Shown in pieces: positions 1,665 through 23,705 of a stretch of 64,000 nucleotides of DNA. The first letter of the stretch is position 1, and each line of letters begins with the position of its first letter. Position numbers and translations under genes: made by a program. The notes under the pieces were generated by a model, which was given only the letters and a program-made list of their open reading frames with translations, did no database searches and was not told the DNA's origin. This stretch comes from a virus. Taxonomy: Duplodnaviria; Caudoviricetes. Location of the stretch: IMG/VR virus record IMGVR_UViG_3300047388_000423, positions 161 to 64,160 of that record; one strand, given 5' to 3'.

Positions 1665-3112
1665 CCCAATGCGGTAATGCGCGGTCGGTCCTTGATCCGC
1701 GGCCGTGGCGTCAGGCGCCGGGCGAATTCGTGCACCAGATTACCATGAACCACCAGGCAGATGTACTGCAGGCAATCGGCGACGTGCGAGAAGCCTTCCT
1801 TGTCGAACTTCTCCGGAATGCTCCTCAAGCCGCCGTCGCGGTGTTTCTTGTAGCGGTAGCCGCCCGACATCGCGCGCACCAGCCAGGGGCAGCCGGGTCC
1901 ATTGATGCACAATGCCGGGCCGCCATTGACCTGGCGTCCGAGCAGGGTTTCCACCGCTCTCAACCTGGTGTCGATATCGTTGGTCGGCGCCGGGAACGCC
2001 GGCAGCCCGAGCCGCTTCAGCGCGTCGAACGAGGTTTCTTCGGCGATGGTGCCTTTGGCGATGCCGGAGGGGTCGCCCACCAGGATCACTTTCGAGCCGA
2101 TGAATTTCTCTGAATAAAGCTTTGGCCGCAGGTTCTGCTCGACGTGTTTCTCCAGGCCGATGTTGCTGGCTGGCACTTCCATGTGGATCAGGAGCCGGCC
2201 CATGTGGTCGACCTGGCCGATCAGCGCCCAGGGATTGCGGCCGAAGTCGATGCCGACGATCAGCGGATAGCCCGGGATCACGAAGGTCTCCCGCACCACA
2301 TGGAAGCTGGACTTGAACGAGGCCTTGAACACCGCTTCGCCGGAAGGATCGTCGCCGTATTCGGCGTAGACGTAGCGTTTCACCCAGGCGCTGTCGCTGC
2401 CGTACATCTCGACAAAGCGCTCGTAATATTTCCGCCCCTGTGCCAGCCGGTCGGGGTGGTTAAACGGGAGTTTGGTGGTGACTTCATTCTGCAGCAGGTA
2501 GTTCAAATTCTCGGCCTTGTCCGACATGCCGCTGGGCTGGATGAAGACCTGCCAGTCCGCCGGCGGCTCGACCATGAACTTGGCCCAGTCGGAAAGCTCC
2601 ACTGGCATGTTGGTGTCGGCCAGGATGCCACACCAGGTTGGGATGCCGCGGTTGCCTGACGGATAGCGGCCGATGCGGCCGGAAATCGGGGCCAGGATAT
2701 CGAAGTTGCATTCGATGATTTCGGAGATGAAGGCGCCGGTCAATTGCATCGACAGCAGCCGGGCCTGGTCTTCGGCGTTCTCCAGCGGGATGAAGATCCA
2801 CTCGCTCTTGACGTCGCCGAAGTCGAGATAAAAGGTGTTGTCCGAAACCCGCCACTCGCCCAGCCCCACCAGCCAGTTTTGCATGTCCTTCAGTACAGTG
2901 TCCTTCAACTGCTTCAGGGTTTGCCGCACGAAGGCGAAGCGGGTGTAGCGGTAGCCGTCGGGTGCCCTGGCCTGCGCCATCGCACGCCGCAGCACCTCGA
3001 TGATGCACGCGGTGGTCTTGCCGCTGCCGACCGGGCCGGCGGCGATGCGGCCGAACGCCTGCGATTTCATGAAGGAGGCCAGCGTCGGCGGCGCCGTGTA
3101 GTCGATTGCCAT
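1655..3112 (-). CDS. terL: terminase large subunit
   Basis: Walker A GPVGSGKT, Walker B-like AFISE, nuclease motifs VGIDFG, GDPSG and SHVADCLQY. Confidence 0.93.
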   Translation of the reverse strand: MAIDYTAPPTLASFMKSQAFGRIAAGPVGSGKTTACIIEVLRRAMAQARAPDGYRYTRFAFVRQTLKQLKDTVLKDMQNWLVGLGEWRVSDNTFYLDFGDVKSEWIFIPLENAEDQARLLSMQLTGAFISEIIECNFDILAPISGRIGRYPSGNRGIPTWCGILADTNMPVELSDWAKFMVEPPADWQVFIQPSGMSDKAENLNYLLQNEVTTKLPFNHPDRLAQGRKYYERFVEMYGSDSAWVKRYVYAEYGDDPSGEAVFKASFKSSFHVVRETFVIPGYPLIVGIDFGRNPWALIGQVDHMGRLLIHMEVPASNIGLEKHVEQNLRPKLYSEKFIGSKVILVGDPSGIAKGTIAEETSFDALKRLGLPAFPAPTNDIDTRLRAVETLLGRQVNGGPALCINGPGCPWLVRAMSGGYRYKKHRDGGLRSIPEKFDKEGFSHVADCLQYICLVVHGNLVHEFARRLTPRPRIKDRPRITALGWT

Positions 3113-13443: not shown

Positions 13444-14750
13444 ATGCCTATCCCCAGTGCCGGATTCCCCGGCGCAACGTCAGGCTCTGTACCCGCTCTT
13501 ACACCCGTAGGTAGTACAGGTAACCTCCTACAATCGACTGGTTTCATCCCTGAAATCTGGTGACCGCTGGCCAGATTAAATCGGTGTTGAAGCAGCTAAA
13601 TTGGTCGAGAAGTTCTATGCTTCCACAGTCTTGTCGGCCATATCAAACACCGATTACGAAGGTTTTGAGCAAGGATTTAGCCTTCGTTAAACCGGGTGAA
13701 TTGTCTGGAAACTCTGACCGCGTAATGGCGAAGACAATCAGCAGCCAAGCCGCAAATGTAAGGAAAACCCCAGGGTTGCGGAAGGTTCAACGACTAGGTG
13801 GTGAGGAAACGATACTCCGCCCACGAGCGCCCGGCTTCCCCGTAAGGGATGATGAGATAGTCTCATCTGCAGGGAAACCTGCAGGAAGATAGGGATAAAG
13901 AGCCCTATCAGCGAAGAAGTTGGAAATCCAAAATCAGGGCGATCGTGTCAAAATTCGCACGAAGCCCACCATCACCATTCGCGACTACAAGGCGGATGGT
14001 CTGCTCGGACTCGATCGACCGACCGGAGGTTCGGTTGAACTGTACATCGGCCTCGGCAAGTACTTCTCGCTGATCCTTGATGACGTGATGGAAGTCCAGT
14101 CAGATCTTAACTTGTTAAGCATGTGGTCCGACGACGCGGCCCAGCAGCTCAAGATCACGGTCGATCGCGACGTGCTTGGCGGCATTGTCGGCGCGGCAGC
14201 GGCGGCCAACAAGGGTGCGACCGCCGGGGTGATCTCCGGCAATCTCAACCTTGGCATCAAGGGTACGCCGATCACGGTGGTCGGTCGTCAGGCTACTCCG
14301 CCGGTGGCGGGGCAGATCGAGATCATCGACGTGCTGTTGCGGCTCGGCCAGTGTCTCGACGAGCAGAACATTCCGGAAGCCGGTCGCTGGGTGGTGATGT
14401 CATCCGCATGCGGTCGTCAGATCAAGCAGTCCGAGTTGAGACAGGCTTACTTATCCGGTGATCCTGTTTCGATGCTGCGTAACGGCCGGCTCGGAATGGT
14501 TGATCGTTTCACAATATACATCTCTAACTTGCTTCCGTCGGTTGCGACCGACGCGACAAACTTTGCGGCTGGTGAACAGCCGATCTTTGCTGGGCACGCC
14601 CACGGGCTTACGTTCGCGTCGCAAATTTCAAAGGTAGAAACTTTGCGTTCCGAGCTGACGTTTGGCCAAATCCTTCGTGGCCTGCAGGTCTATGGCTATC
14701 AGGTGGTGGATCCATCTGCGATAGCCCAAGCACAGGTCCTCCTGGCGTAA
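13444..14750 (+). CDS. major capsid protein (N4-gp56/P22-coat-like), spliced join(13444-13561,13593-13663,13923-14750), 338 aa
   Basis: Joined exons read ...GFIPEIW-SAKLVEKFYASTVLSAISNTDYEG-EIQNQGDRVKIR...RGLQVYG, a contiguous conserved capsid N-terminus. Confidence 0.88.
13562..13592 (+). other. 31-nt core-less mini-intron in the capsid gene
   Basis: Removal restores TGG TCA GCT AAA (W-S-A-K); follows U and ends in G; GCCAGATT pairs with exon AATCTGGT (U.G at the junction) and GCTG pairs with 3' exon CAGC. Confidence 0.7.
13664..13922 (+). ncRNA. group I self-splicing intron (IA-like, 259 nt, no ORF)
   Basis: P1 ACGAAGGT/GCCTTCGT with U.G; P10 GGATTT/AAATCC; P GAATTGTCTGGAAA, Q AATCAGCAG, R GTTCAACGACTA, S GAGATAGTC; P3 CCGGGTG/CGCCCGG; P9 CTGCAGG-GAAA-CCTGCAG; terminal G. 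Confidence 0.93.
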
Positions 14751-15936: not shown

Positions 15937-16344
15937 ATGGATCAGTGTTGCCCCAGCGATGGCTGCGATCACAGCGTGACATCAGCGCATGTCGATCTTC
16001 GGATCGACAATAATGGCACCTGGCAAGACGCCTTCCAGTTCGGCACTCCGGACGACACCAGCTGGACCTTGACCGGCCAGGCTTTCGAACTCGACGTGCA
16101 GCGCAGCCCTTATGATCTGGTGCCACTGCTGCACATGGACAGTGCCGGTGGGCAGATCGTTATCGACGATGTGGTGCAGCGGGTGATTCACTTCAACGTC
16201 CCGCCATCGGATCTTCAGGCCAATCTCAGCCCGGGGACTTACGTATATGACCTTGTGATGGTCAATGGCTCCAATGTCCGGGTGCCGATGATGCACGGCG
16301 CGCTGATCGTAGCGCAGGGGATCACGTATCCGGCGGGGCCCTGA
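15937..16344 (+). CDS. virion Ig-like (BppU-like) protein
   Basis: LTG......R and GTYVYDLV.......M.G...V..GIT motifs. Confidence 0.6.
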
Positions 16345-16751
16345 TGCCGATCATCAACAACGATCCTGCCCTGGTAGAGACACGGCCCGTTGTGGTGGTG
16401 AACGGCCCCACTGGTGCAACCGGTGCGCCTGGCGGGCCAACCGGTCCATCGGGTCCAGCCGGTGCAGCGATAACGGGGCCGACCGGTGCAACCGGGGATC
16501 GTGGTGTTGGGCCGACCGGTGCGACCGGAGCGGGAGCGTTTACCGGGCCGACCGGGCCGAGGGGATTAACCGGCCCACCAGGGACATTAGGCGGATCGAC
16601 TACGGTATCCGGGTTGCCGGCAGCGAGCAGTGCAGGGGCGCGAAGTTTTGTCACCGACGCGACGGTCACGACGTTTAACAGCGTCGTTGCCGGCGGCGGC
16701 AGCAACAAGGTGCCGGTGTTTTCTGACGGGACCAGCTGGCGAATAGGTTGA
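16344..16751 (+). CDS. collagen-like fibre protein 1
   Basis: GPT/GAT triplets; C-terminus FVTDA...[13 protein letters not shown]. Confidence 0.8.
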
Positions 16752-16757
16752 GGGACC

Positions 16758-17228
16758 ATGTCAACGCAATCGAATATTCCCGCTCCGATCATGGCCCAGC
16801 CGGTAGTGGTAATCGGTGGTCCGACTGGTCCTGGTGGCGGACCAACGGGGCCGACAGGTCCTGCAGGGCTTGCAACGATTACGGGTGCTACGGGATCGGC
16901 AGGATCAACCGGGGTCACCGGTCCGACAGGAATGGTTGGCGCTACCGGAGCAGGTGCGTTTACCGGACCGACCGGCAAGACTGGACCGCCTGGTTCGGCG
17001 GGGGCCGCTTCGACGGTGACAGGACCAACAGGATCAACTGGAGCAACCGGTCCGGCAATCATCGGATCGACCACGGTGGCCAGTCTGCCGGCAGCCGGCA
17101 CAGCCGGTGCAGGTGCCCGAAACTTTGTCACTGATGCCAACGCGGCGACGTTCAACACGGTTGTTGCGGCCGGCGGCAGCAACAAGGTGCCGGTGTTTTC
17201 CGACGGCACCAGCTGGAGAATAGGCTGA
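16758..17228 (+). CDS. collagen-like fibre protein 2 (paralog of fibre 1)
   Basis: GPT triplets; near-identical C-terminus. Confidence 0.8.
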
Positions 17229-23040: not shown

Positions 23041-23617
23041 TGTTTCGACGCTTTAACTCAGCTACGAGCTTAGCAGTGGTGTAGTACTCAATTTGTGGTC
23101 TTTTAGGTTGCCATGTATGGCGAGGGCGTCTGTTGTGATTTTGCTCTTCTCGCGTAGACCATTTTATATTTCCCGGTTCGTATCCACGGTCGTTGTCAAT
23201 ACGATCCAGGGTAAAGCTGGGATGTGGGCGTTCACCAATAGCAGCAAGAACTTCAGCTATGAAGACAACAAAATTATTCCATTGCCGAGCGAGTTTGATT
23301 TCGCGACCACCCCAATCCTTGAATTGTGGATTGTTTGGGTTATTGCAACGTGCACGTATATTTTCCCAAGCATTGTAAAGGTAATGTACTTTTCCTCTTT
23401 TAGCGTAACCATGCCGGTAGTTTGTAATCGTTTCTTTTCTGAGACACCCGCAAGAACGAACCCTGTTGTGTGTAAGAAGGACAGCGGTAACGGAATGATT
23501 GTTACCACAATCGCATTGACACAACCATCGCATCTGTCTGTGAATATCTTTACCGATTGGCTTAATTGCAATCAATCGACCGAAGCGTTGATTAGTGATA
23601 TCTTTGAATTTGGCCAT
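23018..23617 (-). CDS. free-standing HNH-family homing endonuclease
   Basis: RFGRL, WLCQCDCG, SCGC, LDRIDNDRGYEPGN.KW.T..EQ..N; antisense and AT-rich inside the tail operon. Confidence 0.82.
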   Translation of the reverse strand: MAKFKDITNQRFGRLIAIKPIGKDIHRQMRWLCQCDCGNNHSVTAVLLTHNRVRSCGCLRKETITNYRHGYAKRGKVHYLYNAWENIRARCNNPNNPQFKDWGGREIKLARQWNNFVVFIAEVLAAIGERPHPSFTLDRIDNDRGYEPGNIKWSTREEQNHNRRPRHTWQPKRPQIEYYTTAKLVAELKRRNIKLTLTP

Positions 23618-23705
23618 GATGACCTCCACAGAAGGTTGTTGCGGCAAGTGGCGGAGCCGGTGTTAGCGCACTGGCTTCGCTGCGCACTATAGCAGGAGAA
23701 CCCCA

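Follow-up and report, generated by a model that had tools for sequence, protein, structure and literature searches.

The 64,000-nucleotide (nt) stretch analysed here (the window) covers almost all of the 64,160-bp phage record IMGVR_UViG_3300047388_000423 of IMG/VR, which has direct terminal repeats and is rated 100% complete. Its major capsid protein gene (13444-14750) is interrupted twice, first by an insert of 31 nt and then by a full group I intron (Table 1). The short insert is a core-less remnant of a group I intron and is probably excised by the ribozyme of the neighbouring intron.

Exon 3 of the gene matches the Pfam family Phage_capsid_4 (PF25209) with 40.1 bits, against a cut-off of 27 (E = 6.9e-10). 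More than 6,000 capsid homologues are found, and the uninterrupted ones are 334-342 amino acids long. They read FIPEIWSAKLVEKFY...DYEGEIQNQ, continuous across both insert sites, and ...TGFIPEIWSAKLVEKFYASTVLSAISNTDYEGEIQNQGDRVKIR... without a break where the gene of the window is in three pieces. In the window the frame of exon 1 reads ...TGFIPEIW and then meets TGA at 13561-13563. An earlier note, made from the DNA letters alone, had seen that removal of 13562-13592 restores the reading. With this deletion T is joined to CA to give Ser, followed by AKLVEKFY, and the same reading is found in the intron-less homologues P0004, P0005, P0007 and others. The 71 nt that the note assigned to exon 2 also agree with our boundaries, which, like those of the full intron (259 nt), are set by homology and by the rule for helix P1 (the pairing of the exon end with a guide sequence inside the intron).

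Table 1. Parts of the interrupted capsid gene in the window, and position of the full intron (proposed helper) downstream of each mini-insert. Sites are named by the two flanking capsid residues.
Feature	Location	Strand	Remarks
Capsid exon 1	13444..13561	+	MPIPS...TGFIPEIW and first base of Ser40; 87% identical to P0004 residues 1-39
5' strand of mini P1, exon AATCTGGT	13554..13561	+	5' splice site after T13561
Core-less mini-intron, 31 nt, group I remnant	13562..13592	+	homologous 33-nt minis at the same site in relatives
Mini P10 guide GCTG	13566..13569	+	pairs with CAGC 13593-13596, the first four exon 2 bases
Mini internal guide sequence GCCAGATT (3' strand of P1)	13570..13577	+	P1 hairpin lies within the minimum-energy fold
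Terminal G of mini (omega-G position)	13592	+	G likewise last in 9/9 distinct minis
Capsid exon 2, 71 nt	13593..13663	+	last two bases of Ser40, then AKLVEKFYASTVLSAISNTDYEG; 96% identical to P0004 residues 40-63
Full group I intron, 259 nt, no open reading frame; proposed helper ribozyme	13664..13922	+	RF00028, 77.7 bits, model 1-253
Capsid exon 3 (EIQNQGDRVKIR... to stop codon), Phage_capsid_4 domain	13923..14750	+	PF25209
Helper configuration V44/E45	L217		RF00028-type
Helper configuration D60/Y61	L023, L039, L087		RF00028-type
Helper configuration Y61/E62	L086		RF00028-type
Helper configuration G63/E64	window		RF00028-type
Helper configuration F47/Y48	L047, L214, L170 groups		different type, ~150 nt

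The insert has the ends of a group I intron. It is preceded by T and ends in G, its guide GCCAGATT forms an 8-bp P1 with the exon end AATCTGGT, with a T.G pair exactly at the junction, and GCTG, which adjoins the guide, pairs with the first 4 bases of exon 2 (helix P10). All of these elements had been named in the earlier note and are confirmed on the sequence. Of 20,000 shuffled versions of the insert, only 1 has a P1 and a neighbouring P10 that equal or exceed these lengths. The claim that there is no room for helices P3-P9 also holds, as 15 nt remain after P1 and P10. The conserved core of RF00028 (P3-P9, with the G-binding site in P7) is absent from the insert and present in the neighbouring intron (77.7 bits). 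The note further described P1 as running into TAAA. This is true of both introns of the window, where TAAA follows the guide (GATTAAAT and CGTTAAAC), but it is not conserved among the related inserts described below.

The insert is present in contigs of four other soil DNA runs (X2 record 1, X3 record 9, X4 record 19, and X5 record 24), in which 13554-13596 is gapless and has no differing letter. Because these contigs are identical over the insert, it is not an assembly artefact. At least four other soil runs contain the phage, and in them the insert is intact. The insert site is bridged in one X2 contig, which belongs to a different relative without the intron.

Mini-inserts in related phages and their origin

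The earlier note had suggested a search of other capsid genes for covarying inserts. An intact homologue was compared by tblastn with 167 related loci (L numbers) from IMG/VR, JGI metagenomes and GTDB genome contigs, and split loci were read by eye. Eight further distinct mini-inserts (minis) of 33-40 nt are found, at two sites that are 9 nt apart. At W39/S40, the site of the window, 33-nt minis exist in L047 (= L048, L049, L212, L213), L214, and L170 (= L201). At P36/E37 they are found in L023 (37 nt), L039 (40 nt), L086 (38 nt), L087 (35 nt), and L217 (= L218; 35 nt).

All nine distinct minis (31-40 nt) have T before the insert and G at its end. In each of them the guide pairs with its own exon end over 7-9 bp, with T.G at the cut, and the adjoining 5' guide pairs with its own 3' exon over 4-6 bp; for each mini at most 4 of 20,000 shuffles attain both lengths. 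This is the splice-site architecture of group I introns: a U-ending 5' exon in a T.G P1, a P10 guide, and an omega-G. The pairings change together. At W39/S40, exon ATC with G in the guide (window) is replaced by exon ATT with A in the L047 group, a C-G to T-A change in P1. At P36/E37 the guide is GGGGAT(G) and pairs with ATCCCT, and for P10 full-length introns at this site have (GA)TTTT with exon GAAAT while the minis have GATCT(C/T) with GAGATC. Judged from these comparisons, P1 and P10 are matched anew to the exons at each site, and compensatory changes have kept both helices paired.

Pattern scans were also made. A scan of IMG/VR for the W/S site gave two matches, both uninterrupted distant capsid genes and hence false positives, and a further scan re-found only L023 and L039. 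A scan of metagenomes gave 12 matches, of which two are real (L086 and L087) and 10 unrelated; note that a downstream intron was not a criterion in the scans that found these two. In another scan, with at least 114 matching stretches, three of the matches listed are real (L147 = L047, L170, and L201).

Folds of the minis have some further pairings. In the minimum-energy fold of 13541-13594 in the window, P1 is prolonged into a long irregular hairpin, and the tail TGAAG of the mini, including its terminal G, pairs with GTTTCA of exon 1 about 20 nt upstream. Comparable tail-to-exon pairing is seen in the other W39/S40 minis (L047, L214, L170). A helix between the 5' loop and the tail is found in some minis, in varying register.

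The first in-frame stop codon past the 5' splice site is TGA in all nine minis. At P36/E37 this TGA is within or beside the P10 guide (GTGATCT / GTTGATCT). Because mini lengths are 0, 1 or 2 modulo 3 and each mini has TGA in the frame of exon 1 within 20 nt, their sequences indicate that they cannot be translated through. At the same time the exons are well conserved as protein. The ratio of non-synonymous to synonymous substitution (dN/dS) for exon 3 is 0.05-0.14 in all; it is 0.05-0.09 for the window against other mini-bearing genomes and 0.09-0.14 between mini-bearing genomes, with synonymous sites near saturation. In exon 1 the window and L047 have 18 synonymous and 4 non-synonymous differences over 36 codons, and comparisons of the window with L047 or L170 give 18-22 synonymous versus 3-4 non-synonymous differences. 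Among the sequencing runs, the exon 1 variants of X5 (13542, 13545, and 13551) are at third codon positions and all synonymous, and the four exon 3 variants checked in X3 (13982, 14009, 14024, and 14078) are all at third codon positions. These patterns indicate that the capsid exons are under strong purifying selection and that the genes are not decaying.

Full introns of 302-688 nt exist at P36/E37 in L016, L017 (= L019, L020 and others), L037, L052, and L230. The P36/E37 minis align with the first ~22 nt of these introns, through GGGGATGTAAA, and match their last ~15 nt more loosely, as judged by eye. For example, the 3' end of the L017 intron has GCTGACCGC in common with the L217 mini and GTGCTGA in common with the L023 mini. 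Because the 5' ends and, more loosely, the 3' ends match full introns, the P36/E37 minis are internal-deletion derivatives of group I introns, in which the core (P3 through most of P9) has been lost. The L037 intron at this site has a weak RF00028 match (17.7 bits, E = 0.03) with P1, P3, P7, and P8 in the expected order. Introns of the L047 type have no Rfam match even at E<=1. The assignment of both to group I is suggested by the weak match of L037, by P1, P10 and the terminal G, and by motifs recognised by eye. As for the window itself, no full-length intron with its guide at W39/S40 is found among the matches listed (at least 114 stretches), so that its direct ancestor was not identified there.

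The neighbouring intron and the competing explanations

The RF00028 match of the full intron (77.7 bits, 13654-13884) starts in the last bases of exon 2, downstream of the insert, and its P1 is formed by exon ACGAAGGT and guide GCCTTCGT. Its core (13697-13750) has matches of 87-89% identity over 54 nt in unannotated DNA of the Pectobacterium phages CB7 and phiTE, probably in related group I introns.

A full intron lies 23-78 nt downstream of the mini in the same gene in 15 of 15 mini-bearing loci and in the window, in the configurations of Table 1. Of 134 loci that are uninterrupted over residues 30-75, none has an insert of more than 5 codons, although this set wrongly includes L230, the bearer of a full-length P36/E37 intron; locus counts come from scripted sorting and hand reading, with L087 classed by hand. 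The full-length P36/E37 introns stand alone, without a second intron, in 5/5 distinct genes. An intron in the helper zone without a mini is found only in L001 and L077. No second group I core is found in the complete 64,160-bp genome, where RF00028 matches nothing but the neighbour at E<=1, and two core motifs occur elsewhere in it at chance level only. The earlier note had called the insert a non-autonomous satellite intron, and nine distinct minis are indeed core-less and lie beside a full group I intron. We infer that the minis are removed at the RNA level and, because minis and full introns co-occur and no other core is detectable, that the neighbour is the catalyst.

The proposed mechanism is as follows. 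The 31 nt are the remainder of a group I intron from which the entire catalytic core is gone, and they retain only the elements that define the splice sites: the P1 hairpin, the adjacent 4-nt P10 guide, and the terminal G. Such a remnant would be unable to fold a G-binding site and so could not catalyse its own removal. The full ribozyme, 71 nt downstream in the same transcript, would dock this foreign P1/P10 helix. Guanosine would then attack after T13561, and exon 1 would in turn attack the bond after G13592. The 259-nt intron would also remove itself in the normal way, leaving an uninterrupted capsid messenger RNA (mRNA). Generalised to all minis, this would be a natural two-part system, in which one group I ribozyme excises both itself and a passive satellite intron of 31-40 nt in the same transcript. 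We are inclined, by a little, to accept the general form.

The earlier note also proposed that the order of splicing controls capsid output. Skipping of exon 2 in the window, by joining 13561 to 13923, does give TGG-TGA. Such control is not general, however, because exon 2 is 72 nt in L023, L039, and L087, 75 nt in L086, and 24 nt in L217, and its skipping would stay in frame at these lengths.

Other introns and matches are found around the minis. The gene of L170 (= L201) has, besides its mini, two introns of non-Rfam type, at F47/Y48 and N58/T59, the latter with an endonuclease open reading frame, and two more RF00028 introns lie downstream (2884-3110 and 2078-2298). A second RF00028 intron, deeper in the capsid gene, is also found in both L087 and L217. 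The homologue P0003 (308 amino acids, 94% identical to exon 3 of the window) has been called as 14 unrelated residues followed by EKFYAST..., implying an intervening sequence that ends at V44/E45, as in L217, and no intron at G63/E64. In L023 (1882-2956), L086 (34-351), and L039 (2151-2956) the Rfam group I match starts in or before the mini, not at the 5' splice site of the helper. In L023, and in L086 according to the alignment, the P1 placed by Rfam falls within the mini region or before it; this was not counted as evidence, since the 'P1' of the L086 alignment is a different hairpin, formed by the first bases of the mini with its tail. A helix between the 5' end and the tail is possible in some minis.

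Several observations weigh against excision by the neighbour. The sequencing runs found to contain the sequence are DNA only, none being RNA. In the window the gain in fold energy of the P1 region is modest (z = -1.68; 14/200 shuffles), and P1 is within the minimum-energy fold in six of nine minis, while the other three favour a P10-like pairing. RNAduplex pairs mini and helper no better than shuffled minis in 6/6 pairs, which gives no sign of a specific tether. A shared TGACCGC motif and a likeness of the mini tail to the P4 strand of the helper, both seen by eye only, were dropped as unsupported. Because the helpers sit at five positions and comprise two or more unrelated types of intron, docking would have to be generic and sequence-independent. 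What is known of P1 recognition makes this plausible. The genomes with minis may stem from few independent lineages, in which case the co-occurrence counts overstate the evidence. Finally, Rfam misses some intron classes, and a further core, whether in another part of the genome or supplied by the host, could escape detection.

The strongest alternative, which we regard as unlikely, is group I chemistry with another catalyst, either a ribozyme acting in trans (an intron of the host or an undetected one of the phage) or a minimal fold made of the mini and its flanking exon. It would fit the conservation of P1, P10 and the terminal G whichever type of helper adjoins, the lack of specific pairing between mini and helper, and the intron classes missed by Rfam. 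In addition, splicing of PaSSU-type introns in vitro reportedly requires ~300 nt of flanking exon (PMC3160393). A catalyst supplied by the host does not predict, however, that a full intron lies within 78 nt of every mini in five configurations, nor that the equivalent full-length intron is alone in all five distinct genes, and 31 nt leave no room for a P7-like G-binding helix in a minimal active fold.

Slightly less credible still is that the insert is a dead scar of intron deletion that is never removed. In that case translation of the capsid protein would begin at an internal start within exon 2, or the gene would be broken and the element would persist in some other way. The start of the gene does vary among relatives. 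In L014 (2880-2900; = L252) the capsid gene appears to lack residues 1-34: the TAA of the upstream gene directly precedes ATC ATT CCG GAA ATC TGG (I-I-P-E-I-W), with no ordinary start codon, which could mean that the N-terminus is truncated, that the start is unusual, or that a deletion has occurred. Gene callers also start several relatives at internal codons. A shortened N-terminus may thus be tolerated. Against a dead scar, exon 1 is under strong purifying selection in mini-bearing lineages and its X5 variants are synonymous, compensatory changes maintain P1 and P10, and exon 2 of L217 is only 24 nt. Moreover, the phage is found again in several soils, and its genome record carries terminal repeats and a rating of complete.

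Ribosomes might hop over the insert with the help of a hairpin and a take-off stop codon, which would be programmed translational bypass of the T4 gene 60 kind. All nine minis have TGA after the would-be take-off region, and the last exon bases are within a hairpin. But identical take-off and landing codons that restore the frame exist in only one of the nine (L023), and in the window the only matches (ATC and GAA) would lose the invariant Trp39. Bypass also leaves the T...G ends, the P10 pairing, and the homology to full introns unexplained, and we consider it improbable. An archaeal bulge-helix-bulge intron, with its two splice sites in 3-nt bulges on either side of a 4-bp helix, was rejected, as the fold has no such geometry: the 5' site is at the loop end of P1, and the base of the extended stem holds the 3' site. 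The 8 exon bases next to the insert recur inside it as their reverse complement, which a recent template switch (a quasi-palindrome mutation) in one clone could have produced. Such a mutation, like an artefact of assembly or sequencing, is practically ruled out by the gapless contigs of four other runs and by the diverged homologous minis, with compensatory changes, in eight other sequences.

Genome context

The nearest cultured relatives by capsid protein are the Rhizobium phages RHph_TM3_14A, TM27A, TM27B, and TM29 (~60.9 kilobases; 62.8% identity), in which the gene is uninterrupted. This hints at an alphaproteobacterial soil host. A scan of genome contigs found five small contigs of metagenome-assembled genomes from several phyla. 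Downstream of the head genes, overlapping open reading frames at 16322-17209 (-) and 16344-16751 (+) are rich in GPxG / PxGP collagen-like repeats and may represent a collagen-like tail fibre gene. A match to PtaRNA1 (RF01811) at 23610-23687 (+) is below threshold (28.7 bits where the gathering score is 47, E = 0.13) and is probably due to chance.

Known systems and what the minis would mean

Group I introns are textbook autonomous ribozymes. In phages they reportedly exist in T4 td and nrdB and in Twort orf142, which is said to have three introns and exon skipping. The minis resemble canonical phage group I introns (RF00028) in the T.G P1 at the 5' splice site, the internal guide, the P10 guide, the terminal G, the early in-frame stop codon, and the location in a highly expressed late gene. 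Unlike them, they have no P3-P9 core or G-binding site, are 31-40 nt rather than ~200 nt or more, and are presumably not autonomous.

The closest natural precedent is the degenerate group I introns of the PaSSU type in the ribosomal DNA (rDNA) of fungi and lichens (PMC3160393). These introns, 56-81 nt in length and with P1, P7, and P10, reportedly self-splice when the flanks are long, and a minimal active fold that includes flanking exon is claimed for the 67-nt PaSSU intron of fungi. Like the minis, they arose from larger group I introns by deletion and have retained P1 and P10. They differ in having a putative P7 and a pairing between intron and 3' exon, in being about twice as long, and in residing in ribosomal RNA (rRNA). 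The minis (31-40 nt) have P1 and P10 but no P7 candidate in their folds, and do not belong to this type.

Mechanistically, the closest analogue is the engineered spliceozyme, a Tetrahymena ribozyme that removes an intron from a separate pre-mRNA (PMC4094466). As in our proposal, one group I core handles the two splice sites of a core-less intron and joins the exons. The spliceozyme is man-made and carries the guides itself, whereas the phage minis carry their own guides and the natural core would act in cis.

Other systems have less in common with the minis. Group I introns that are trans-spliced in organelles, reportedly those of the Prasinoderma mitochondrial large-subunit (LSU) rRNA and of placozoan cox1, likewise assemble catalysis from separate RNA parts. 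In those, two complementary halves of one intron rebuild one core, whereas in the phage one intron, itself complete, would provide catalysis for another that lacks a core. A further comparison is with the group III introns of Euglena plastids and with degenerate group II introns that depend on trans factors. They too are abbreviated and have kept splice-site elements while losing catalytic domains, but they are of another intron class and chemistry and are found in organelles, not phages. T4 gene 60, with its translational bypass, likewise has a short gap that is left untranslated and begins with a stop codon and a hairpin, but it has matched take-off and landing codons, which are absent from eight of nine minis.

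Literature searches, with supplements outside their scope, gave no description of core-less group I introns in phages, and a paper on capsid introns of cluster J concerns introns of the ordinary kind.

Gene callers split or truncate these capsid genes, and introns of 31-40 nt are invisible to covariance-model scans. The whole system is less than 600 nt, small enough for direct testing in vitro. If the proposed excision is true, natural introns without a core would persist under selection in an essential, highly expressed gene, which would revise the picture of group I introns as autonomous ribozymes, and one group I core could serve a second intron in vivo. The phage would then have a natural counterpart of the engineered spliceozyme, with introns that cede catalysis to a shared catalytic RNA. 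It would also be a natural model for the transition from self-splicing to passive introns, which has long figured in discussions of how spliceosomal splicing arose.

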